Positions 1 through 9,616 of a DNA stretch of 64,000 bases are shown here, in pieces. Below the pieces are notes generated by a model, which worked only from the letters and a program-made list of their open reading frames with translations, searched no databases and was not told the DNA's origin. The stretch covers positions 29,074 through 93,073 of the forward strand of contig JAJDDT010000009.1 in NCBI GenBank assembly GCA_029260165.1, read 5' to 3'. The stretch comes from Phycisphaerae bacterium. Lineage in GTDB: Bacteria > Planctomycetota > Phycisphaerae > UBA1845. The position numbers and the translations under genes are program-made. Position 1 is the first letter of the stretch. Every line of letters begins with the position of its first letter.

Positions 1-1199
1 CGGGCATCCAGGTGACCCAGGCGGTGGCGACCTGTCCAGCCAACTTCCGCGACGATGCCAAGCAGGCGTTACTTGAAGCGTTCAAACGCAACGGCATCAA
101 GGTCCTGCGGCTCATCCCCGAACCCACCGCCGCCGGGTACGCCTACGCCCTCGATCGTGGCGGCAGCAACAGTACGTTTTTGATCTATGACTTCGGAGGC
201 GGGACGTTTGACGTCTCCATCATCCGCCTTGAAGGAAGCCAGTTCACCGTGCTCAGCACGGAGGGCATCCCCACGCTCGGGGGCAACGACATCAGCCGTT
301 GTATCGAATCACGCGTATTGGATGACGTTGAGGCAGCCTGCGGTCGTCGACCCTGTCGTGAGGATGACGGACTCTTCTTCCTGGACCTCGACCAGCGTAT
401 CGAAACAGCCAAGATCTCACTGGGCAAACAAAAGGAAGTGCCCATCGTCGCATCGTTTGTTGGTCAGCAAACCATCGTCAAGATCACGCAGGTGGAGTTT
501 CATGCGAGTATCGACTCCTTGATCGGTCAGAGTCTGGATGCCACGGATCGGGCGATCGTCGCGGCGGGACTGACCATCGACGCTATCGACCGCTTGGTGA
601 TGGTCGGTGGGACCTCCCGCCTGCCGCACATTCAGGAGCGGGTCGCCGATCATACGGGATTGGTTCCACGTACGGACATTGATCCCGACAAGGCCATTGC
701 CTACGGTGCCGCGTTGGCATGTGTGGCGGAGATGGACAAGAACGGCCAGGCCGCCACGATCCACGGCCAGGTCATCCCAGCACCCGAATTGTTCGTCCAG
801 GATGTCACCGCCCATGACGTCGGTTGCTCGGCCCTCATACACGACGGTCCCAAGCAACGCCTTGTGAACGCAGTGATCATCCCCAAGAACACCGCCATCC
901 CTTGCCAGAAGACGGATCACTTCTACTTGGAGAGCGAGGAGCAAACACGGGCAAAGGTTGAGATCCTTCAGGGCGAAGGGCGTGCCAATCGCGACGATTG
1001 CCTGGTGATCGGCGAGATCATTCTGGACAACCTTCCGACCGAGACCGTTCAGTCGCAACGCATCTGTGTGCAATACACGATCGATGCCAACGGCATGGTC
1101 ACCGCCACCGCCACGGACAAGGTGAGCGGCATCAGTCGCACCGTATCGGTGGATTACAAAAAGGGTATTCATGCTCGCCAGCAGCCAGCCGCAGCTTAA
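1..1199 (+). CDS. Hsp70/DnaK-family ATPase, 5' end cut by the window edge; nucleotide-binding domain plus beta-sandwich substrate domain, no C-terminal helical lid
   Basis: The frame is open from nt 3. Hsp70 actin-fold motifs are present: IPEPTAAGYAYAL, LIYDFGGGTFDVSII, LVMVGGTSRLPHIQERV, DPDKAIAYGAAL. A DnaK-like beta-domain signature follows (ICVQYTIDANGMVTATATDKVSG). The ORF stops about 25 aa later, with no lid region. Confidence 0.85.
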   Translation, partial: GIQVTQAVATCPANFRDDAKQALLEAFKRNGIKVLRLIPEPTAAGYAYALDRGGSNSTFLIYDFGGGTFDVSIIRLEGSQFTVLSTEGIPTLGGNDISRCIESRVLDDVEAACGRRPCREDDGLFFLDLDQRIETAKISLGKQKEVPIVASFVGQQTIVKITQVEFHASIDSLIGQSLDATDRAIVAAGLTIDAIDRLVMVGGTSRLPHIQERVADHTGLVPRTDIDPDKAIAYGAALACVAEMDKNGQAATIHGQVIPAPELFVQDVTAHDVGCSALIHDGPKQRLVNAVIIPKNTAIPCQKTDHFYLESEEQTRAKVEILQGEGRANRDDCLVIGEIILDNLPTETVQSQRICVQYTIDANGMVTATATDKVSGISRTVSVDYKKGIHARQQPAAA

Positions 1200-1214
1200 T
1201 CGAAAGGAGCACAC

Positions 1215-1940
1215 ATGATGCAATCCATCTGTTATCCGACAATATCGCACTACGTCTCGGGATCGATCGGCACCATTTTGGTGCATACCATGGCAATGTT
1301 GGATCGCCTCGGACGTTTCATGGCTGATCCATTGGCACCGTCACGGGGTCGGCGTGCAAGCCATGAGGAGCGACAACACAACACGGCCGTGTTGGTCATT
1401 GATACGTCTGCATCGATGTCGGACGCCGACTGGCCGCCGTCGCGGCTGCGGGCCGCACAAGATGCCGCCAGAAAGTTCACTCGACGTCTGCACCGCGACT
1501 CGCCCGATACGCGTGTCGGGATCATCACCTTTTCCGGGACGGCTCGTGTGGTTGCAAAGCTCACACCCGCCGCCGACCTCGCCAGGCTGACAAGGAGCAT
1601 TGATTCCGCTGCAGTTGAGTCGTCCACCAACATCACCGCCGGTCTGCGTAAAGCAGAATCCCTGCTGAAACGTGTCGGCGGTCCGTGCCACATCATTCTG
1701 CTCACCGACGGTGTGCACTACGCCCGCCCACAGCCGCACAAGGCGGCATCGCGATTGCGGTCCGTCGGCACGCTGGAAACAGTAGGCATCGGTGGCTCAC
1801 CCGCAGACGTCGACGAGGAGCTTCTTAAGGAAATCGCCTCGGCAAGACCCGACGGATCCAAGCGGTACCGCTGGATCGGTGATGGCGAAGAACTGGTCAA
1901 GCACTTTGAGTGCCTCGCAGAAGGGTTGGTGAGACGATGA
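1215..1940 (+). CDS. von Willebrand factor type A (vWA) domain protein with an intact MIDAS motif
   Basis: AAAGGAG lies 7 nt upstream of the ATG, which is 15 nt after the Hsp70 stop. vWA motifs: VLVIDTSASMS (DxSxS), ITFSGTA, STNITAGL, IILLTDG. Confidence 0.8.
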   Translation: MMQSICYPTISHYVSGSIGTILVHTMAMLDRLGRFMADPLAPSRGRRASHEERQHNTAVLVIDTSASMSDADWPPSRLRAAQDAARKFTRRLHRDSPDTRVGIITFSGTARVVAKLTPAADLARLTRSIDSAAVESSTNITAGLRKAESLLKRVGGPCHIILLTDGVHYARPQPHKAASRLRSVGTLETVGIGGSPADVDEELLKEIASARPDGSKRYRWIGDGEELVKHFECLAEGLVRR

Positions 1941-2233
1941 TCATCGATCTATCCAGCATACTGCTGCTGCCGCTGGTCGTGCTCGCGTGGGCGATCGACG
2001 CGTATCTGTTTCTGCTCACCGTTCATCTAACCCTTGGGCGTAGGGTGACGGTTCCCGAACTGTCGGACTGGAAGCGATCGCTGAAGACGTTGGTGAATCC
2101 ACTCCCCACAAACGTCGCGAATCGCTTGTCTTCGATTCGACCCGATCTGCCCGGTTGGGTGTCATGGGCTGTCACCGTCATCAGCCTGCTCATCATGCGT
2201 CAGGTGTGTTTCGCTACCGTCGGGACTGCGTAG
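1937..2233 (+). CDS. small predicted 2-TM membrane protein (98 aa), hypothetical
   Basis: The ATG overlaps the vWA TGA (ATGA). Hydrophobic stretches are ILLLPLVVLAWAIDAYLFLLTV and WVSWAVTVISLLIM. The start was chosen by coupling rather than the upstream ATG at 1910. Confidence 0.5.
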   Translation: MIIDLSSILLLPLVVLAWAIDAYLFLLTVHLTLGRRVTVPELSDWKRSLKTLVNPLPTNVANRLSSIRPDLPGWVSWAVTVISLLIMRQVCFATVGTA

Positions 2234-2250
2234 CTGATTGAGGATTCATT

Positions 2251-2490
2251 GTGGCCGACCTGACCGTTCAACCGCTGCCGATCGTGATGACCACCGACGA
2301 GGTGGCATCGATCCTTCGCTGTTCGCCCGACTCGGTCAGGCGATACGTCTTCAGCCACCAGTTGGCTGCCATCCGAATCGGACGCGAACGTCGCTTCAGG
2401 GCCGAGGACGTGCTCGAATTCGTGGCTTCTCGCCCCCTGACCGCACGAAGTCGGGGGCGGAGGCCACGTCCCCAACGCCGGGGCCGCTGA
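2251..2490 (+). CDS. excisionase-family helix-turn-helix DNA-binding protein (Xis/AlpA-like)
   Basis: GTG start with GAGGA 7 nt upstream. The sequence MTTDEVASILRCSPDSVRRYVFSHQLAAIRIGRERRF matches the excisionase-type HTH pattern. It sits directly upstream of an integrase. Confidence 0.75.
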   Translation: MADLTVQPLPIVMTTDEVASILRCSPDSVRRYVFSHQLAAIRIGRERRFRAEDVLEFVASRPLTARSRGRRPRPQRRGR

Positions 2491-2536
2491 CACAGTGACG
2501 GCACGAAACAAGCAGTGACGCTTGTTTCGGTGTCAG
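2487..2536. repeat. long imperfect inverted repeat between xis and int
   Basis: A perfect 10-bp stem, cgaaacaagc (2504-2513) / gcttgtttcg (2520-2529), has a 6-nt loop. It is extended by ctgacac (2487-2493) / gtgtcag (2530-2536). CAGTGACG occurs twice (2492, 2512). No U-run follows on either strand. Confidence 0.8.
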
Positions 2537-2624
2537 AAAACCACATGAAGTGTCTTGATCGCAGGCACGCTTCGATCCATCGTCAAAGCCGTTGGTCACG
2601 AACCACCAACCGAGGACTGAAAAC

Positions 2625-3875
2625 ATGATCGCAACCGTCAATCTGCTGCACCTTCCCAAGAGACGAAGCCCGCACATCGTTCGTTGGTGGGGTGAACCTG
2701 ACCCTGAGACGGGAACCCAAAAGCGTTACGGTCGTTCGTTCATGACGATGACGGAAGCACGCAAGTTCTACGTCGAAAAGCAATCCGAGATGGATCGCGG
2801 CAAGCCCCGTGATCCCGTCGATGCCACCCTCGAAGAACTGTTCGCCGAGTTCGAGAAGGCACGTCTGTCGTTGTTGAGCTACGCCTCCAAGATCGGATAT
2901 CAACTCACGATCCAGCAAATGCTGGCCCAATTCGGACGAAATCTCAAAGTCAGACACCTCGAACGTCGTCACGCCGAGTCCTTCATCGCCACCCGCAAGC
3001 GTTGTGACGGACGTGCCGGTGAGCTCTCCCCGTGGGCCAGGGCTCGGCACCTGATTCACTGTCGTGCCATCTTCTCCGCAGCCGTCGAATGGGGCTACGC
3101 CGATGACAATCCATTTCGGGCGAACCGCTATGGTGGGAACTCACCACTTCGACTGCGGCCCAAGGGTCGGCCATGGCATCACATTACCCCTCGCGAGTTC
3201 ATGCGGTTGCTCCCACTGATTCCATCCGCACGACAACGTGCCGCCTACTGGTTTATGTACGGTTGTGGGCTACGACCGGGCGAGGTGTACAACCTCATGG
3301 TCACCAACGTCGATATCGAAATTCGACGGGTAGACGTCGTGAATCGATTGGGGTCGCCGGACATCCCGCCGTTTACGGTCAAAGCAGAGGGGCAGTCATC
3401 CGAGAGCAAGGAACGCAGCGTACCCATCCCCAACGCCGCCATCCCCGACATCGCGGACGCCATGAAGTTGGCGTTCAAGTCGGGCGGATTCCTCACGCTC
3501 ACGCCGCAGCGTTTTGAACGGGTTCAGCAGTACTGGCGACTCTGTCGGTCGAATCAGGGCTGGGGTGACCATGACTGGCGGCCATGGCAAAACCGCGACA
3601 TGATGAACAACATGCTCCGCGATGCCAAGAAGTACTTGAATCAAGCCGGCATCGAATTGTCGGCTCCCTTCACGCTCAACACGTTTCGCAAGAGCTTCGC
3701 CCAGAATCACGCCGACGCCGGAACACCGCCGCGTACGCTCGCCAAGCTGCTCGGACACGCGAATACGCGGGTGACCATGCAGTACTACAACCGTGTCACG
3801 GACGCGAATGAACGAGCGGCGGACGATGCCATGAATCGAATTCTGTCACCGAAACGAAGAGCGACGACCGCGTGA
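2625..3875 (+). CDS. tyrosine site-specific recombinase (phage-type integrase)
   Basis: The C-terminal catalytic region FRKSFAQNHADAGTPPRTLAKLLGHANTRVTMQYY has the HxxR...H...Y pattern, and RPGEVYNL is box I-like. ATG at 2625 with GAGGA 8 nt upstream was preferred to the TTG at 2592. Confidence 0.9.
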   Translation: MIATVNLLHLPKRRSPHIVRWWGEPDPETGTQKRYGRSFMTMTEARKFYVEKQSEMDRGKPRDPVDATLEELFAEFEKARLSLLSYASKIGYQLTIQQMLAQFGRNLKVRHLERRHAESFIATRKRCDGRAGELSPWARARHLIHCRAIFSAAVEWGYADDNPFRANRYGGNSPLRLRPKGRPWHHITPREFMRLLPLIPSARQRAAYWFMYGCGLRPGEVYNLMVTNVDIEIRRVDVVNRLGSPDIPPFTVKAEGQSSESKERSVPIPNAAIPDIADAMKLAFKSGGFLTLTPQRFERVQQYWRLCRSNQGWGDHDWRPWQNRDMMNNMLRDAKKYLNQAGIELSAPFTLNTFRKSFAQNHADAGTPPRTLAKLLGHANTRVTMQYYNRVTDANERAADDAMNRILSPKRRATTA

Positions 3876-3983
3876 TGGGCCTGGGCAATGCCGTGGTTAG
3901 AAGCGATGCATGCTCGAATGGAGCGAGAGATTCGCAGCATACGACAGGATCGTACGATGACGTTCTTGTCGCGAATGGCACGA

Positions 3984-4238
3984 TCAGGCTGATTGGCCGG
4001 TGTCGCCGGAACCAATCGGCGTCTGCTTGGAATTGTCCTTCGCTTCTTTTTCAAAATCATCAATCGCCTCTTGTGCATCCTCATAAACAGCATCCAAATC
4101 GGTGTAGTCGTTCGTTCGTTTTTCGACCACCATCGCCCACGTCATGAATTCCTCGCGAGTGCGGGGCTCTCGGCCAACGACAGTGGTGAAGTCCTCGTCG
4201 GTGATGTCGATGCGTTCAACCTCGTGTTTCCATTTCAT
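3984..4238 (-). CDS. small, highly acidic hypothetical protein (84 aa)
   Basis: GGAGGG lies about 12 nt upstream of the ATG. The protein is D/E-rich (DITDEDF, DLDAVYEDAQEAIDDFEKEAKD). Local GC is lower. Confidence 0.55.
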   Translation of the reverse strand: MKWKHEVERIDITDEDFTTVVGREPRTREEFMTWAMVVEKRTNDYTDLDAVYEDAQEAIDDFEKEAKDNSKQTPIGSGDTGQSA

Positions 4239-4545
4239 TGTTTGCGTTGTCCCTCCTTCTGAATGATCGTTGAGTCGCTGCCGGTCGAGTTGTTCCCTGC
4301 CCCGGATTGTTGCGAGCCTTCGACTTCTGCTCGTATCGAATGGTTTTTCATGAGGGAACCAAGTGGTTGGGGTTTATAAGATTTAGCGCGGTCAAAAATA
4401 GCGCTTCCAGAATACGTTTCGCCGAGACTTCACGAAGAAATCAAGCGAGATTCTGGTCAGACACCCAAACTGGACCAACTTCGCCAGCCGTTCGGGTGAA
4501 GGTTTTTAAGTGACAGCACCTTCCCCACGGGATGGACGTGCGACA

Positions 4546-4947
4546 ATGACCGAGCCAACCGTCAGGGTGATCATTGAAAAAGGAATCGCCAGAATAGAAG
4601 CGCTCACGGCGGACGCTGACGTGGAAGTGCGGGATTACGACGTTGAGCTTACCCCCGAAGACCACCCACACCTTTGGACCGATGAGAATGGACGTCGGTG
4701 CGCGCGGTACTTCGTCTCTGGAGGCACGAACACACCTCCCGCACGAAGCTACGCCGCCGGACTCGAGAAACTCGCCGCAGATATGGGAACCTTTGCAGGC
4801 GTATCGACATCTTTCTCACCCGCAGCGTCCGAAGATCTTCTTCATGTACTGACCGTAAACGGCGCGGATTTCTACTTCGGCACAGACGGTCGATACGACG
4901 GCTGGGGCAAGTCCATTCAGCGCAGCCACAGCCCACCAGATGCCTGA
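4546..4947 (+). CDS. hypothetical protein (alternative GTG start at 4510)
   Basis: The ORF has a protein-like composition (VRVIIEKGIARIEALTADADVEVRDYDVELTPEDHPHLW; NGADFYFGTDGRYDGWGKS). No family was recognised, and competing antisense ORFs are Arg-rich. Confidence 0.4.
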   Translation: MTEPTVRVIIEKGIARIEALTADADVEVRDYDVELTPEDHPHLWTDENGRRCARYFVSGGTNTPPARSYAAGLEKLAADMGTFAGVSTSFSPAASEDLLHVLTVNGADFYFGTDGRYDGWGKSIQRSHSPPDA

Positions 4948-5540
4948 ATCGCACGCGAACACACCGTGGTCGGCTCGTGCAACGACCGAACAATGCAATT
5001 TGCCTTTGTGGGTGAGCGCCTGCACGGGACTCATGCGCTCTTGTCGCCGAATCGCTCCAAATCGAGCATTTGCCACGCAGAATCAACGAACTGCCCGTGC
5101 GGTTCGACCCGCAAATCGCCGTTCGCGAACAGGCCCCAATGAATTTTGAGAAGCGAGATTCACAACTATTGGTGCGAGTCCCTCGCAAGACGAAACCACA
5201 CAACGCAACATATGTGAAGCCTCTGCACTCGCGTAAGTGACTTTCAGTTCAGGGGTTACACTTCGAGACGCCGCCGATCCTCGACAGGGTCAAGGGGCTG
5301 CCCAACGTTCACCGAGTTGGCGAATATGGCACGACGAATTTGCGGGGCGGGAGCGAGCCCGGCAATTGAGCGCGTCTTCGAAACTGACACCAGGACACCG
5401 CAAAAACGGGAGCGCCTGCATGTGCGGCAAGCGCTCTTCATCCTGAAACAGACACCAAACTGACACTTTTCGGGGTTTTTCGTGATTTCACCGGGACCGG
5501 CGAGAATCGTAACCTACTACCGGGCCAAGGGTTACGCGAA

Positions 5541-5614
5541 TGGGCGATACAGGACTTGAACCTGTGACCTCCTGCGTGTCGAGCAGGCGCTCTAGCCAAC
5601 TGAGCTAATCGCCC
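5541..5614 (-). tRNA. tRNA-Val (anticodon GAC by position) with an unusual C at position 33
   Basis: The reverse complement folds as a cloverleaf: GGGCGAT TA GCTC AGTTGGCTA GAGC G CCTGC TCGACAC GCAGG AGGTC ACAGG TTCAAGT CCTGT ATCGCCC A. The acceptor and D-arm (GGGCGATTAGCTCAG) are typical of bacterial Val tRNAs. Confidence 0.85.
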
Positions 5615-5707
5615 GGGTTGCGTCGTTGGCTGCGACGACCGGGCATCCTAACACCGCAGTCGAATTTTGCAATCTGTTGAATTCTCTCGAATTCGTGAAT
5701 CCCGCGG

Positions 5708-6757
5708 TCACCGGAATCCAACCTTGCCTGTGCCTCTGACGAGTTGGCCTATGATGGTTGCGTCCTCGTTCATGTCCTGGAGGTGTCTGACGATGTCGCC
5801 TGCGATGAATTCAGGCGTGACGATGACGAAGCCAACGCCCATATTGAAGACTCGGTACATCTCGTTTTCGGCGATGCCTTGGGATTGCAACAGGTTGAAA
5901 ACCGGGGGTATGGGCCAGGAGTTTCTGTTGATGACGGCGTCGCAGTTGGGGTTGATCACGCGGGCGATATTTTCACAGAGACCGCCGCCGGTGATGTGGG
6001 CCATTGCGGTGATGTGTTTGTTGGCGGTGAAAGTGGCCAACAGGTTGGTGATGGGTTTGACGTAAATGCGGGTGGGTTTGAGGACCGCGTCAGCGAGGGT
6101 TTCACCGAGTGCGTCGTGGTGTTGGTCGAGGTCGAGGTTGGCGGTGGTAATGAGTTTGCGAACGAGCGAGAATCCATTCGAGTGAATGCCGCTGGAAGGA
6201 AGGGCGATGATGGATTGTCCCGGTGCGGTCTTCGAGCCGTCGATGATTTTCGACTCGTCAACGATGCCGACGGAGAATCCGGCGAGGTCGAAACCGTCCG
6301 ATTTGTAGAGATCGGGCATTTCGGCTGTCTCGCCGCCGAGCAGGGCGCAATTCGCTTCGCGACAACCGTCGGCGATGCCCTCGATGATGGGGGCGAGCGT
6401 GTCGGGGGTGAGTTTGTGGGCGGCGATGTAGTCGAGGATGAAGAGCGGGGTTGCTCCGCCGGTCAGAAGGTCGTTGACGTTCATGGCGACGAGGTCGATG
6501 CCGAGGGAGTGGGACCGACCTGTCTGGATGCCGAGAATGATCTTGGTGCCCACGCCGTCGGCGCATGAGACGAGGACGGGGTTGGAGAAGGGTTGACCGG
6601 CGGGGTCTGTGAGTTTGAACAACCCCGTGAATCCACGGGGTTTGCTGATGACGCGGTGATCCTGCGTGGATTTGAGGGCGGACTGGATGCGGGTGATCCA
6701 TGCGTTGTTGGCGTCGATATCCACGCCGCTGGATTTGTAGGTGAGTTCGTCGGTCAT
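5708..6757 (-). CDS. purM: phosphoribosylformylglycinamidine cyclo-ligase (AIR synthetase)
   Basis: LTYKSSGVDIDANN..., GFTGLF, DGVGTKI and the rest of the sequence match PurM across the full length. The ATG at 6757 overlaps the purF stop (ATGA). Confidence 0.95.
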   Translation of the reverse strand: MTDELTYKSSGVDIDANNAWITRIQSALKSTQDHRVISKPRGFTGLFKLTDPAGQPFSNPVLVSCADGVGTKIILGIQTGRSHSLGIDLVAMNVNDLLTGGATPLFILDYIAAHKLTPDTLAPIIEGIADGCREANCALLGGETAEMPDLYKSDGFDLAGFSVGIVDESKIIDGSKTAPGQSIIALPSSGIHSNGFSLVRKLITTANLDLDQHHDALGETLADAVLKPTRIYVKPITNLLATFTANKHITAMAHITGGGLCENIARVINPNCDAVINRNSWPIPPVFNLLQSQGIAENEMYRVFNMGVGFVIVTPEFIAGDIVRHLQDMNEDATIIGQLVRGTGKVGFR

Positions 6758-8280
6758 CGGACGGGACTGGCGGAGGGTTCCATGGCGAATTTGTCGAATT
6801 TTTCGGGAACGGTGACGGGGTATTCTCCGGTGAAGCACGCGGAGCAGTACATCTCGGGTTTCATATTGACGCAGTTGAGCATGCCATCGACGGAGAGGTA
6901 GGCGATGGAGTCGACTTCGAGAACGCCGCGGATTTCGTCAACCGTTCGGTCTGTTGCGACGAGTCTGGATTTGTCGGGAAAGTCGATGCCGAAGTAGCAG
7001 CCGTTGCGAACGGGTGGGCTTGCCACGCGGAGATGAATTTCGGTCGCACCCGCGCGGCGGAGTTCGCCGAGCATGGCCTGGGTTGTTGTGCCCCGGACGA
7101 CCGAATCCTCAACGACGGCGAGTCGCTTGCCGCGGACGACGTTCTCGAGAACGCGGAGTTTCATACGCACCTGTTGTTCGCGCGTGGCTTGATCGGGCAT
7201 GATGAAGGATCGGCTGGTGCGAGGGGTGGTCGTGATACCACGACCGAATGGGATGTTCGTTGCACGACTGTAACCGATCGCGGCGCATCGGGCGCAGTTC
7301 GGGATGGCGATGACCATGTCAGCGTTTGCGGGGGCTTCGAGGGCGAGCTGTCTGCCCATGAGTTCGCGGACAAGTCGGACGTTTTGGCCGAAGATGTCGC
7401 TGGAAGGGTCGGCGAAGTAAACGTGCTCAAAGATACAGGCAGCGCCACGTTTCGGATTGGGTGGACCGATGCGTGCTGACGATCGTCCTGTTTTGTCAAG
7501 CGTGACGATTTCGCCCGGATCGACGTCGCGGATGTATTCGGCGTCGATAACGTCAAAGGCACAGGTTTCGGATGCGACGACGTATGATCCGTTGCCAAGC
7601 AGTCCGATGCACAGCGGGCGGAAACCGAGCGGGTCGCGGATTGCGACAACGCGGTCCGGGAAAAGAATGACGAGGCAGTAGGCACCTTGCAGAGATTTGA
7701 GGGTCTTGATTATTGCATCAGTGCTCAAGTCGTTTGCGGCGGCAAGCAGGTGGCCTATGATTTCGGTGTCGGAGGTTCCGTCGAACACGGTGCCCTGGTT
7801 TTCGAGTTTGCCGCGGATGGTGGTGGCGTTGGTGAGATTCCCATTGTGGGCAATGGCGATCGACGTGTCGCCAATCGTGAATTCCAGGGGTTGGGCGTTG
7901 CGGATGGAGCATCCGCCGGTGGTGGAGTAGCGGACGTGGCCTATGGCGTTTGGGTTCTTGATGGTCGTGAGATTGTCGGCGTTGAATACATCTGAGACGA
8001 GACCAACGCCGGCGTGTTTGCGGAGTGATCGACCGTTGCTGGTGCAGATCCCGGCGGATTCCTGGCCTCTGTGTTGCTGGGCGCGGAGGGCGAGGTGCGT
8101 GAGTGCGGCTGCGTCGGGATGGTTGACAATTCCAAAGAGTCCGCAGCTGTGTTTCGCGTCGCGCACGGCGTGTTGCCCTCGGTTTGGTTCCTGAAGCGTG
8201 GTTTGGTAACTGGAATGACAGTAGTCGGATGGTGTGGGAGCGTCAACGAAGCGTGGTCGTCTTCGCAGGTTGCCGGTCAT
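6754..8280 (-). CDS. purF: amidophosphoribosyltransferase
   Basis: CGLFGI...QHRGQESAGI is the N-terminal nucleophile Cys region, and the PRTase motif VVEDSVVRGTT is present. The start is uncertain: ATG 8280 overlaps the upstream gene by 38 nt, and a GTG at 8166 is an alternative. Confidence 0.93.
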   Translation of the reverse strand: MTGNLRRRPRFVDAPTPSDYCHSSYQTTLQEPNRGQHAVRDAKHSCGLFGIVNHPDAAALTHLALRAQQHRGQESAGICTSNGRSLRKHAGVGLVSDVFNADNLTTIKNPNAIGHVRYSTTGGCSIRNAQPLEFTIGDTSIAIAHNGNLTNATTIRGKLENQGTVFDGTSDTEIIGHLLAAANDLSTDAIIKTLKSLQGAYCLVILFPDRVVAIRDPLGFRPLCIGLLGNGSYVVASETCAFDVIDAEYIRDVDPGEIVTLDKTGRSSARIGPPNPKRGAACIFEHVYFADPSSDIFGQNVRLVRELMGRQLALEAPANADMVIAIPNCARCAAIGYSRATNIPFGRGITTTPRTSRSFIMPDQATREQQVRMKLRVLENVVRGKRLAVVEDSVVRGTTTQAMLGELRRAGATEIHLRVASPPVRNGCYFGIDFPDKSRLVATDRTVDEIRGVLEVDSIAYLSVDGMLNCVNMKPEMYCSACFTGEYPVTVPEKFDKFAMEPSASPVR

Positions 8281-9616
8281 CGACAGGTCCGGGTTCCCAC
8301 ATGGCGACGGTGACTGCGACGAAAATGGCGACGAATGGGGCGGTCAGATCAGGCGTTCGTGTGTATGAGAGGAGCTGGAAAAATTCGCCCAAACAGGCTG
8401 TCATTGTGACGACGGGGACGATCGCGACGAGGCGATAAGAGCGAGGTTTGGTGCCAATCGCCAGTCGCAGCAGGGTGGCCATCATTGCGAACTGCGTCAG
8501 GTATTCAGCCATGTCTGCCATGGCGGTGGAGAAGGGGCGGTGGAATTGTGCGGCCAGGGGCAGTTGGCGAAGACTGGCTGGTTGGATGTTGGTCCACGAC
8601 AGATCGAAAGGGGTCGCGCCGGCGACGAGCATGACGACGATCATGACGCCGCCCAGGGTCGCGAGAACGGGGCGCAACGGCAGCCGGGGGATTGGGTATG
8701 CAACCGCGACTATTGATGCACCGATAAATCCACCCGACAGCGCGGAAAACATATCCATGAGTTCAAATGCGTGTGACATGACGAAAAGTTGCAAAAGCTC
8801 AATGGTCAACGCGACGGCGAGGATTTCGACAAACGCGGTCGAGGCAGCCGCCCGTGGCCGACGGCGTTCAAAAATGATCTTTGACGGACGTTGGAATCTG
8901 ACGATCGTCGCGACAAAGCCGAGGACTGAGAACTGGACAGCATAGATGGACCAGTCAAACCATGCGGAAATCCTTGCGGCGGGCGTATCGAGCTGCGATG
9001 CCCATCCCGTCAGAGGCCAGAGGTTGGATTGCCTGAGCGACGCGCGAAGCTGGCTTGTCGAGGTGATGATGTCGAACGGAGCCAAATGATAGACAACAAG
9101 TCCGACGGCACCGGCGGCGGCGAGTTTCGTGAGGGGCTTGTGACGAACGGAACGGAGCACGCCGATGCGGACCGCCCGAACATATTGACCGTTGGCACCG
9201 AGGAGTGCGCCCAGAAATCCACCCAACGTGTTGTTGCAGACGTCGGTCCATGAGGATACGCGGATCGACATCATCGTCTGCACCCACTCGAAAGTAATCG
9301 ACGTGGCAAATACCAGGGTCGTCACCAACAGGACCAACCGAATTCGACGCGCTATGAAAACACGAGCCGATAATGCCAACAGAAATCCGAATGGAATATA
9401 GGCCAACAGGTTTGAAACGATATCCTGGGTTGGCGATCCACCCCATTGGAATAATCGCAGTCCGTACCAGTTTGCGGCACCGACCATCGGTACATTGAAC
9501 GAAAACGGCAGCAGACTGACCACGGCGATGCCGGCTGTGACGATCACTGTGCACCAGAGTATGGTCGGCGACCAGTCGTGCTCCCGGATGATTGTCTTTC
9601 CACGCAACCGCTTCAA
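8243..9616 (-). CDS. polytopic membrane protein with two VanZ-like repeats
   Basis: TTG start with GGAGGAGG upstream. About 12 hydrophobic segments. VanZ-like E..Q...D..N..G..G patterns occur twice (FEWVQ...SWTDVCNNTLGGFLGALLG; IELLQ...MDMFSALSGGFIGA). Confidence 0.7.
   Translation of the reverse strand: MKRLRGKTIIREHDWSPTILWCTVIVTAGIAVVSLLPFSFNVPMVGAANWYGLRLFQWGGSPTQDIVSNLLAYIPFGFLLALSARVFIARRIRLVLLVTTLVFATSITFEWVQTMMSIRVSSWTDVCNNTLGGFLGALLGANGQYVRAVRIGVLRSVRHKPLTKLAAAGAVGLVVYHLAPFDIITSTSQLRASLRQSNLWPLTGWASQLDTPAARISAWFDWSIYAVQFSVLGFVATIVRFQRPSKIIFERRRPRAAASTAFVEILAVALTIELLQLFVMSHAFELMDMFSALSGGFIGASIVAVAYPIPRLPLRPVLATLGGVMIVVMLVAGATPFDLSWTNIQPASLRQLPLAAQFHRPFSTAMADMAEYLTQFAMMATLLRLAIGTKPRSYRLVAIVPVVTMTACLGEFFQLLSYTRTPDLTAPFVAIFVAVTVAMWEPGPVDDRQPAKTTTLR

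Follow-up and report, generated by a model that had tools for sequence, protein, structure and literature searches.

Why should an Hsp70 that ends ahead of its lid be encoded back to back with a von Willebrand factor A (vWA) protein and a small membrane protein, directly before an excisionase and an integrase? The question is raised by the left end of a 64,000-nt stretch of DNA from a Phycisphaerae bacterium (contig JAJDDT010000009.1, positions 29,074 to 93,073), hereafter the window. An earlier note on this DNA had described positions 1 to 2233 as a non-canonical Hsp70-vWA-membrane module, possibly carried by a mobile element or lying next to one. Hsp70 is usually viewed as a generalist folding machine that has a lid and relies on a J-protein and GrpE. 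By contrast, positions 1 to 2233 are very probably the distal part of a five-gene cassette, which is a constant part of integrase-bearing elements. The invariant catalytic residues of the Hsp70, together with the metal ion-dependent adhesion site (MIDAS) of the vWA protein, indicate a working, dedicated, and probably membrane-tethered Hsp70 machine rather than a housekeeping operon. Our tentative reading of the whole, role included and held with rather less than even confidence, is that the element carries a conflict system which acts by exclusion or by abortive-type defence.

The lidless Hsp70 and its cassette

The Hsp70 frame in the window (398 aa) ends in ...YTIDANGMVTATATDKVSG (ATDKVSG), followed by 22 aa and a TAA stop. 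This fragment matched positions 132-503 of the 599 in the Pfam HSP70 profile (E 1.7e-66), and an identical full-length database protein, P0001 (503 aa; PF00012, E 3e-83), supplied the first 105 residues, which the window lacks. P0001 aligned with residues 4-508 of Escherichia coli DnaK at 30% identity, its beta-sandwich substrate-binding domain (SBD) corresponding to DnaK 389-508. In a family alignment of 105 full-length members with DnaK, the C-terminus fell at about DnaK residue 516 in 89 members and between 511 and 518 in all but two. The AlphaFold (AF2) model, built with 42 sequences (predicted local distance difference test [pLDDT] score, 91; predicted template modelling [pTM] score, 0.89), comprised a nucleotide-binding domain (NBD) and an all-beta SBD (369-487) docked on it, with the last 11 residues disordered and no helix after residue 492 that could form a helical lid. 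Its best structural match was ATP-state DnaK (TM-score, 0.85; root mean square deviation, about 3 Å). Thus, the Hsp70 is lidless across the whole family, as the earlier note had seen in the one gene, and since no sequence is left for a lid, a divergent lid is excluded by the full-length alignment. Lid-truncated DnaK and BiP, which were among the fold matches (PDB 5obu, 7a4u, and 9blu), also consist of NBD and beta-SBD, but they are laboratory truncations, whereas the present one is natural and family-wide. The C-terminal tail (window 1140-1196) is conserved as ...SVDYKKGIKPKxKPxAA, although it was modelled as disordered; by analogy with the eukaryotic EEVD tail, which is similarly positioned, it could be a docking motif.

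The earlier note had credited the gene with full NBD motifs. The phosphate-2 motif DFGGGTFD, EPTAAG, and GGTSRLP are present in the window, but the N-terminal DxGTT (phosphate-1) motif lies beyond its edge and was found in P0001. The equivalents of DnaK D8, K70, E171, D194, T199, and D201 are kept in 104 to 105 of the 105 members, and from sequence and model the Hsp70 is predicted to be ATPase-competent and allosterically normal. Residues of the SBD pocket and arch differ from DnaK family-wide (I401C, V436A, and A429E), and the J-domain contact positions R167 and N170 are variable.

All five contexts selected through the Hsp70 (homologues 52 to 86% identical) share the cassette TM1-GrpE-Hsp70-vWA-TM2, and cross-locus BLAST grouped each of the five genes into a family. 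TM1 is a protein of about 75 aa with two transmembrane (TM) segments, whose gene overlaps or abuts that of the GrpE-like protein, and an ATGA joins both TM1 to GrpE and vWA to TM2. The GrpE-like protein (about 220 aa) is divergent, with Pfam GrpE scores of 29.9 and 27.4 bits against a cut-off of 25.8. The three-gene module of the earlier note was therefore rightly called cut at the left edge, but it is larger, with TM1, a GrpE-like gene, and usually a further HerA-containing set ahead of it. No HPD J-domain motif occurred in any conserved neighbour family; an HPD in a conserved vWA loop of 6 members is not part of a J-domain. As no J-protein is encoded, the Hsp70 must use the host DnaJ or none.

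An ordinary housekeeping grpE-dnaK operon with a divergent lid, which happens to lie beside an integrase, might be suspected, since a GrpE-like gene precedes the Hsp70 in relatives and the best sequence and fold matches of the Hsp70 were DnaK and HscA. An upstream grpE/dnaJ pair was also what the earlier note had named as speaking against its module. The GrpE-like gene is indeed there, but it is dedicated to the element and is accompanied by no dnaJ, which sets the operon apart from ordinary chaperone operons. Identity to E. coli DnaK is low, the protein stops at about DnaK 516, and the window sequence, a fragment only, scored 223 to 225 bits against the NCBIfam DnaK equivalogs, whose cut-offs are 648 and 822. 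Moreover, the vWA and TM genes are translationally coupled, and several metagenome-assembled genomes (MAGs) contain two to three copies, each next to an integrase and a tRNA. A housekeeping operon is thus hardly credible.

The vWA protein matched Pfam VWA_2 (3e-20) and VWA (1e-19), and its MIDAS motif, DTSASMS, lies at residues 63-69. In a 46-sequence alignment, D63, S65, T138, and D165 were invariant and S67 was conserved in at least 90%. The AF2 model (pLDDT, 86.6) showed a generic vWA fold. It is preceded by a helix (residues about 18-36, or about 25-36 by a narrower delimitation) whose hydrophobic positions are 70 to 100% conserved and flanked by Arg, and which reads ...MAMLDRLGRFM... in the window; a variable linker follows the helix. 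A database search returned about 77 clusters of 215- to 250-aa proteins down to E 2e-18, followed by a sharp fall to BatA-type proteins. In a profile search of 1.84 billion representatives, 595 (at 50% identity) were found at E<=1e-30, some of them long multi-vWA proteins, while about 125 of the 150 representatives listed were single-domain proteins of about 220 to 250 aa.

The weak similarity of the vWA protein to CoxE, BatA/B, and chelatase-type families raises the idea of a dedicated maturation chaperone for a host or element complex, comparable to MoxR-vWA and CoxE/ChlD-type systems, in which a metal or subunit would be brought by the vWA protein and inserted into a membrane complex by the action of the Hsp70. 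Such a cargo function would be beneficial and have nothing to do with conflict. The membrane association of the cassette and an ATPase-competent Hsp70 with its own exchange factor would suit such a role. However, no conserved client enzyme or metal-transport gene was found nearby, the neighbours being mobile-element genes, and a maturation factor would not normally occur in multiple copies per genome, linked to tRNA and integrase. We consider this explanation improbable.

TM2 homologues occupy the equivalent position in L001, L002, L004, L010, L014, L052, and other loci (relatives are cited by locus number). The loop between the two helices, about 45 aa long, is rich in Lys and Arg, which suggests a cytoplasmic location, and commonly has an acidic residue within ...LV(D/E/N)PLP.... 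TM2 had no match in Pfam, NCBIfam, or PADLOC; a resemblance to YggT was considered and dropped, as Pfam gave no match. The gene overlaps of TM1 with GrpE and of vWA with TM2 suggest an inner-membrane location for both the exchange factor and the vWA protein.

The element that carries the cassette

A vWA profile scan of one genome per GTDB species yielded 43 loci, which were annotated with hidden Markov models built from the element families and with unbiased clustering; the gene-order ratios count only loci with enough flank. The hosts were Phycisphaerae, Sedimentisphaerales, Thermoguttaceae, Candidatus Kuenenia, and other Planctomycetota, and further Verrucomicrobiota, Kiritimatiellota (Pontiella), Hydrogenedentota, and a few probably mis-binned MAGs. 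The Hsp70 gene lay immediately 5' of vWA in 30/34 loci, and a small open reading frame (ORF) with at least two TM segments followed vWA in about 34 of the 43. A GrpE-like gene was present in 26/30, and a tyrosine integrase was encoded downstream within 6 kb in 23/31 and within 2.1 kb in 21/31. The Hsp70-vWA-membrane order, the co-conservation of which had been in question, thus recurs in dozens of independent contigs.

A second conserved set, with its HerA-like ATPase, lies upstream in 20/26 loci. It consists of a TM protein of about 60 aa, a Cys-rich protein of about 140 aa, a P-loop ATPase of about 560 aa, and another protein of about 140 aa. Among the relatives of the ATPase are HerA (PDB 4d2i, E 4e-10), other HerA/DUF87 proteins, and FtsK. 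The ATPase also has a weak MarR-like winged helix-turn-helix (wHTH) match at its C terminus and a weaker relation to the packaging ATPase B204 of STIV. The last protein of the set has invariant G, H, D, and E-x-E residues and a K conserved in at least 90% (a D...ExE...K motif) and is possibly PD-(D/E)xK-like, judging from this pattern; as a candidate nuclease it gave no significant hit in PDB and Pfam profile searches (Cas4, 0.17; Hjc, 0.81). The Cys-rich protein was considered as a DnaJ-like zinc finger and rejected, as it has neither CxxCxGxG nor HPD. In L052, whose Hsp70 is 77% identical to that of the window, the full 12-gene set lies within 8.5 kb. The HerA-like protein P0338 is 61% identical to the L052 ATPase, and the element of the window probably also carries the HerA set, off its left edge. 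The closest relative, L001, has no HerA set, and neither does L007. In L001, the place of the set is taken by a divergently oriented gene (7578-8981, minus strand) for a 467-aa AAA-type ATPase with a weak PADLOC match to PDC-S01 (0.003).

When contexts were selected by the HerA-like protein instead, 3/3 carried GrpE-Hsp70-vWA-TM2 in the usual order and strand, and both contexts that reached far enough had an HTH_17 gene and an integrase. The cassette, being constant in these contexts, behaves as backbone and not as swappable cargo. The link to a mobile element drawn in the earlier note was thus justified, but the module does not lie beside xis and int by chance; it is a constant part of the element itself.

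Among the loci with an integrase and enough downstream DNA, 17/27 had a tRNA gene within 650 nt of the integrase, and in 8 of those 17 the integrase ORF enters the opposite-strand tRNA gene by 11 to 89 nt (Table 1). The tRNA 3' end supplied by the element therefore doubles as coding sequence for the integrase C terminus. Together with the Val tRNA of the window, 12 tRNA types were found (Met, Glu, Arg, Ser, Thr, Lys, His, Asp, Phe, Pro, and Tyr being the others). Several MAGs hold two or three diverged copies at different tRNAs, and in one MAG three copies, about 85% identical, share a sharp left junction about 45 nt 5' of the first gene, beyond which the DNA is unrelated. The divergence of Hsp70 was correlated with that of vWA (Spearman rho, 0.56), while integrases averaged 23% identity, so that a conserved core appears to be combined with fast-changing or exchanged recombinases. 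The elements are compact (at least 8.5 kb, about 12 genes) and encode at least five small membrane proteins each. Similarity to distant relatives ends at the integrase stop, and the nearest relatives alone share two small ORFs beyond it. In sum, the cassette is tied to a tRNA-adjacent integrative mobile element in bacteria of the Planctomycetota-Verrucomicrobiota-Chlamydiota (PVC) group.

Several loci depart from this plan. In L015 (10938-15726), the two sets have changed places, GrpE-Hsp70-vWA coming ahead of the HerA set, and a large serine recombinase is encoded instead of the tyrosine integrase. In L039 (4169-7260), from the isolate Pontiellaceae bacterium B12227, GrpE-Hsp70-vWA is directly preceded by the genes for two Peptidase_C14 (caspase) proteins, of which one has TPR repeats, and there is no integrase; in L041 (Pontiella sulfatireligans), vWA alone is kept at the corresponding place. 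TPR proteins are encoded downstream in L014, and L004 adjoins a DISARM-like SNF2/PLD/DUF1156/DUF3780 set. In L034 (9218-10564), an Hsp70 beta-SBD (Pfam HSP70 405-512) and the vWA domain are encoded together in one 448-aa ORF that lacks the NBD, with PAS/GAF and response-regulator genes upstream; this is either a deletion remnant or a natural fusion that hints at SBD-vWA contact. In L055 (12217-13729), the Hsp70 is split into ORFs of 393 aa and 121 aa by a frameshift or assembly error, the element being otherwise complete. Just left of the element, a Peptidase_M48 protein (664 to 692 aa) and a protein of about 280 to 300 aa are encoded in L006/L012 (983-3970), L053 (2953-5802), and L054 (5249-8168), with a homologue of the smaller one in L018 too. 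This pair is possibly a left arm of the element that varies among loci.

Such a constant backbone also raises the possibility of an element life-cycle machine, in which the cassette and the HerA/FtsK-like wHTH ATPase would move or package element DNA at the membrane. Apart from xis and int, no recognisable replication, relaxase, type IV secretion, or capsid gene was found in the element; therefore, its propagation functions must sit among the cassette and HerA genes. The kinship of the ATPase with HerA and FtsK, and more weakly with B204, the number of small membrane proteins, and the copies at different tRNAs of one MAG agree with this, as does the recurrence of the cassette beside the HerA-like gene. 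However, some loci have the cassette but lack the HerA set (L001 and L007, and L039 with caspases instead), and the swapped order in L015 shows that the two sets are separable. No circular or excised form was observed. Relatives of the vWA protein were found in neither IMG/VR nor PLSDB, Hsp70 matches in phage records were limited to generic DnaK/HscA (about 30% identical), and PHROGs returned nothing for vWA, TM2, the GrpE-like protein, or the upstream genes of L002. Integrase-first sampling of metagenomes added two short loci that lack upstream DNA. A life-cycle machine is possible, though somewhat less likely than a conflict system.

The same holds for its variants, namely TraB-like transfer of double-stranded DNA or capsid-less, vesicle- or plasmavirus-like morphogenesis, with the Hsp70 as an assembly or translocation motor comparable to closterovirus Hsp70h. 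The latter is encoded next to a small hydrophobic protein and serves assembly and movement rather than general folding. It belongs to a eukaryotic RNA virus, has a different C-terminal domain, and is accompanied by neither GrpE nor vWA, so that the comparison is one of analogy only. It is unlikely that the cassette is the hallmark module of unrecognised compact PVC-specific elements in which an element-encoded Hsp70 motor drives cell-to-cell transfer or the formation of capsid-less membrane particles. Such a motor would consist of the lidless Hsp70, its GrpE, the vWA adaptor, and the small membrane proteins, and would act together with the HerA/FtsK-type wHTH ATPase.

Features of the window

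The features read in the window are collected in Table 1. The junctions reported in the earlier note were all confirmed: 15 nt separate the Hsp70 gene from the vWA ATG at 1215, with the AAAGGAG ribosome-binding site (RBS) in between; the vWA stop (TGA, 1938-1940) overlaps the TM2 start (ATG, 1937) as ATGA, TM2 homologues beginning at the equivalent Met; and 17 nt separate TM2 from xis. Its proposed Pfam searches likewise assigned the HSP70 and vWA families and left the 98-aa protein without a match. The excisionase is 82% and the integrase 81% identical to their L001 counterparts. The integrase starts at TTG 2592 (427 aa) or, more likely by homology, at ATG 2625 (416 aa). Between xis and int, the arms of the inverted repeat read CGAAACAAGC and GCTTGTTTCG; as no T-run follows, a regulatory or protein-binding site is more likely than a terminator. 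Scans for promoters and terminators over positions 1 to 5800 gave nothing informative.

Table 1. Coordinates of the window features and of tRNA genes entered by the integrase ORF in relatives (locus coordinates)
Feature	Position	Strand	Evidence
Lidless Hsp70, 3' part (residues 106-503 of 503 aa)	3..1199, open at left edge	+	Pfam HSP70
RBS AAAGGAG, 5 nt ahead of vWA start	1203..1209	+	Read from sequence
vWA protein, 241 aa, cytosolic, complete MIDAS, conserved N-terminal amphipathic helix	1215..1940	+	Pfam VWA_2/VWA
TM2, 98-aa two-TM protein	1937..2233	+	ATGA overlap; homologues at equivalent position
Excisionase-family HTH (Xis-like), 79 aa, GTG start	2251..2490	+	HTH_17 5e-13; TIGR01764 5e-11
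Perfect 10-bp inverted repeat, 6-nt loop	2504..2529		In 101-nt gap between xis stop and int start
Tyrosine integrase	2592..3875	+	Phage_integrase 7e-18; phrog_1 2e-42
84-aa ORF between int and tRNA	3984..4238	-	54% aa identity to L001 14248-14508
145-aa ORF	4510..4947	+	tblastx 46-56% to ORF near L051 integrase (71% identical integrase)
tRNA-Val(GAC), 3' end toward integrase	5541..5614	-	ARAGORN and Rfam
tRNA entered by integrase ORF, L010	12846-12921		
tRNA entered by integrase ORF, L025	13496-13569		
tRNA entered by integrase ORF, L030	13310-13385		
tRNA entered by integrase ORF, L033	12964-13036		
tRNA entered by integrase ORF, L035	4150-4226		
tRNA entered by integrase ORF, L047	5344-5432		
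tRNA entered by integrase ORF, L053	17529-17613		
tRNA entered by integrase ORF, L012	13752-13827		

The 84-aa and 145-aa ORFs had no Pfam match and may be either element cargo or host DNA. The tRNA-Val gene lies 1.67 kb from the integrase, a weaker link than in relatives. It is probably the integration target and the right limit of the element; beyond it, the housekeeping gene purM begins at 5708.

Could the window hold a mere decaying remnant of an integrated element, without current function here? Other copies have decayed (the lone vWA of L041, the fused SBD-vWA of L034, and the frameshifted Hsp70 of L055), and no attachment repeat was found. In the window, however, all five visible ORFs are intact, the RBS and overlaps are preserved, and the catalytic and MIDAS residues are complete. 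The GC content of the element has ameliorated to the host level and has no power to mark the element. We regard decay as very unlikely.

A possible conflict system and its known counterparts

In the proposed mechanism, TM1 and TM2 would tether the GrpE-like factor and the vWA protein at the inner membrane, and the Hsp70 would cycle ATP with its private exchange factor. Without a lid, it could grip part of an already folded partner, and do so with fast kinetics. The most likely client would be the vWA protein, through its conserved basic and hydrophobic N-terminal helix, in which a hydrophobic stretch between basic residues recalls the segments bound by DnaK. In this way, the Hsp70 may control whether the vWA MIDAS can engage an acidic ligand, located either on a target or in the loop of TM2. 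As a conflict system, the cassette would resemble MoxR-vWA systems in design, with Hsp70/GrpE in place of the AAA+ chaperone. The output would come from the small membrane proteins and, elsewhere, from HerA/nuclease-like or caspase proteins. The conflict-system reading is supported by the caspase and TPR proteins of L039, the DISARM-like set of L004, the match of the HerA-like ATPase to PADLOC mad8 (1e-14), and the precedents among predicted conflict systems described below.

Several points weigh against it. PADLOC has no model that matched the Hsp70, vWA, TM2, or GrpE-like protein (E<=0.01). No other part of the element is as constant as the cassette, and no alternative cargo was seen in its place, which is life-cycle-like and unlike typical defence cargo. 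That the vWA helix is a client and that the proteins are tethered to the membrane are predictions drawn from the conservation pattern and gene overlap. The upstream genes of the source contig, probably present there, are known through the single protein P0338, the window itself being devoid of them. Finally, no direct repeat of the tRNA region of at least 10 to 11 nt was found within 10 to 16 kb upstream in 12 loci. Manual inspection of L054 revealed no attachment repeat, and neither did a search of the window, whose element has its left end off the edge. As a consequence, the left limit of the element is provisional, and so is the list of its genes.

The logic of the cassette has precedents. 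As reported previously, pairs of an NTPase-chaperone with a vWA protein, and Hsp70 with GrpE, are themes of predicted conflict systems (PMC7159879; Kaur, Burroughs, Iyer & Aravind 2020). The MoxR-vWA ternary systems, in the description of which Planctomycetes are mentioned, similarly combine an ATP-driven chaperone and a MIDAS vWA protein in one operon, with extra small or effector parts, in variable or mobile regions (PMC7159879). Here, by contrast, an Hsp70 with its own GrpE takes the place of the MoxR AAA+ protein, small TM proteins serve as partners, and no VMAP or EAD-type effector domain was detected; no MoxR or AAA_3/AAA_5 family was found among the called neighbours in 11 annotated contexts. 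The GAP1-N2 GTPase systems likewise place a dedicated Hsp70 and GrpE in a non-housekeeping operon, with a standalone vWA protein in a sister theme (PMC7159879). They are, however, built around a GTPase that is combined with FNIII/DnaJ or TPR proteins, and most of them are found in actinobacteria and firmicutes, whereas the annotated cassette neighbourhoods had no GTPase or J-domain, and TPR in L014 and L039 alone.

Type III-A CoCoNuT operons encode Hsp70-like NBD/SBD proteins, MIDAS vWA proteins, FtsK/HerA ATPases, D-ExK nuclease-like proteins, and membrane proteins (PMC11090510; Bell et al. 2024). The likeness to our elements extends to a lidless Hsp70-like NBD/SBD, a MIDAS vWA protein, an ATPase of the FtsK/HerA superfamily, a D-ExK-like protein, and membrane/glycine-zipper proteins. 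The ATPase motifs of their Hsp70-like proteins are degenerate, whereas here they are invariant and a GrpE accompanies them. McrB/McrC (DUF2357), HEPN, CARF, and TerY-P kinase/phosphatase were all absent from the annotated contexts. In the MADS model, mad6, mad7, and mad8 are mandatory together (10.1101/2023.03.30.534895). The HerA-like ATPase matched mad8 (1e-14 to 2e-7) and Xis matched mad1 (2e-9), but no methylase, mad6, or mad7 was matched. The cassette thus fails the defining features of MoxR-vWA, GAP1-N2, CoCoNuT, TerY-P, and MADS systems, while its logic resembles theirs.

As a carrier, the element resembles tRNA islands and actinomycete integrative and conjugative elements (AICEs) in its tyrosine integrase and Xis at a tRNA 3' end, its compactness, its FtsK/HerA ATPase with a putative C-terminal wHTH (in relatives), its small membrane proteins, and its multiple copies. 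AICEs such as pSAM2 combine int-xis with an FtsK-like TraB that bears a wHTH. Unlike AICEs, the present elements have no recognised Rep, Nudix, or Kor, reside in PVC hosts, and yielded no attachment repeats. Full-text literature searches found no description of the cassette arrangement, and to our knowledge an Hsp70/GrpE/vWA cassette in AICE-like or other small integrative elements has not been described before. The carrier is apparently an undescribed family of PVC integrative elements.

Here, across several PVC phyla and Hydrogenedentota, a naturally lidless Hsp70 has its own GrpE, no J-protein, and a hard-wired connection to a MIDAS vWA protein and membrane proteins. If the conflict-system reading is true, Hsp70 would join the chaperone ATPases that act as immune switches, such as MoxR and the McrB-linked Hsp70-like proteins, with a predicted intact catalytic cycle that can be assayed. 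If the cassette instead serves propagation, the element would represent a new kind of bacterial mobile element. Should the Hsp70 be its motor, it would be a prokaryotic counterpart of closterovirus Hsp70h, in the first bacterial element that propagates via its own Hsp70 system. Either way, the cassette offers a minimal, genetically isolated system of Hsp70, nucleotide exchange factor, and client, and it can serve to flag mobile DNA in a bacterial group with a little-explored mobilome.

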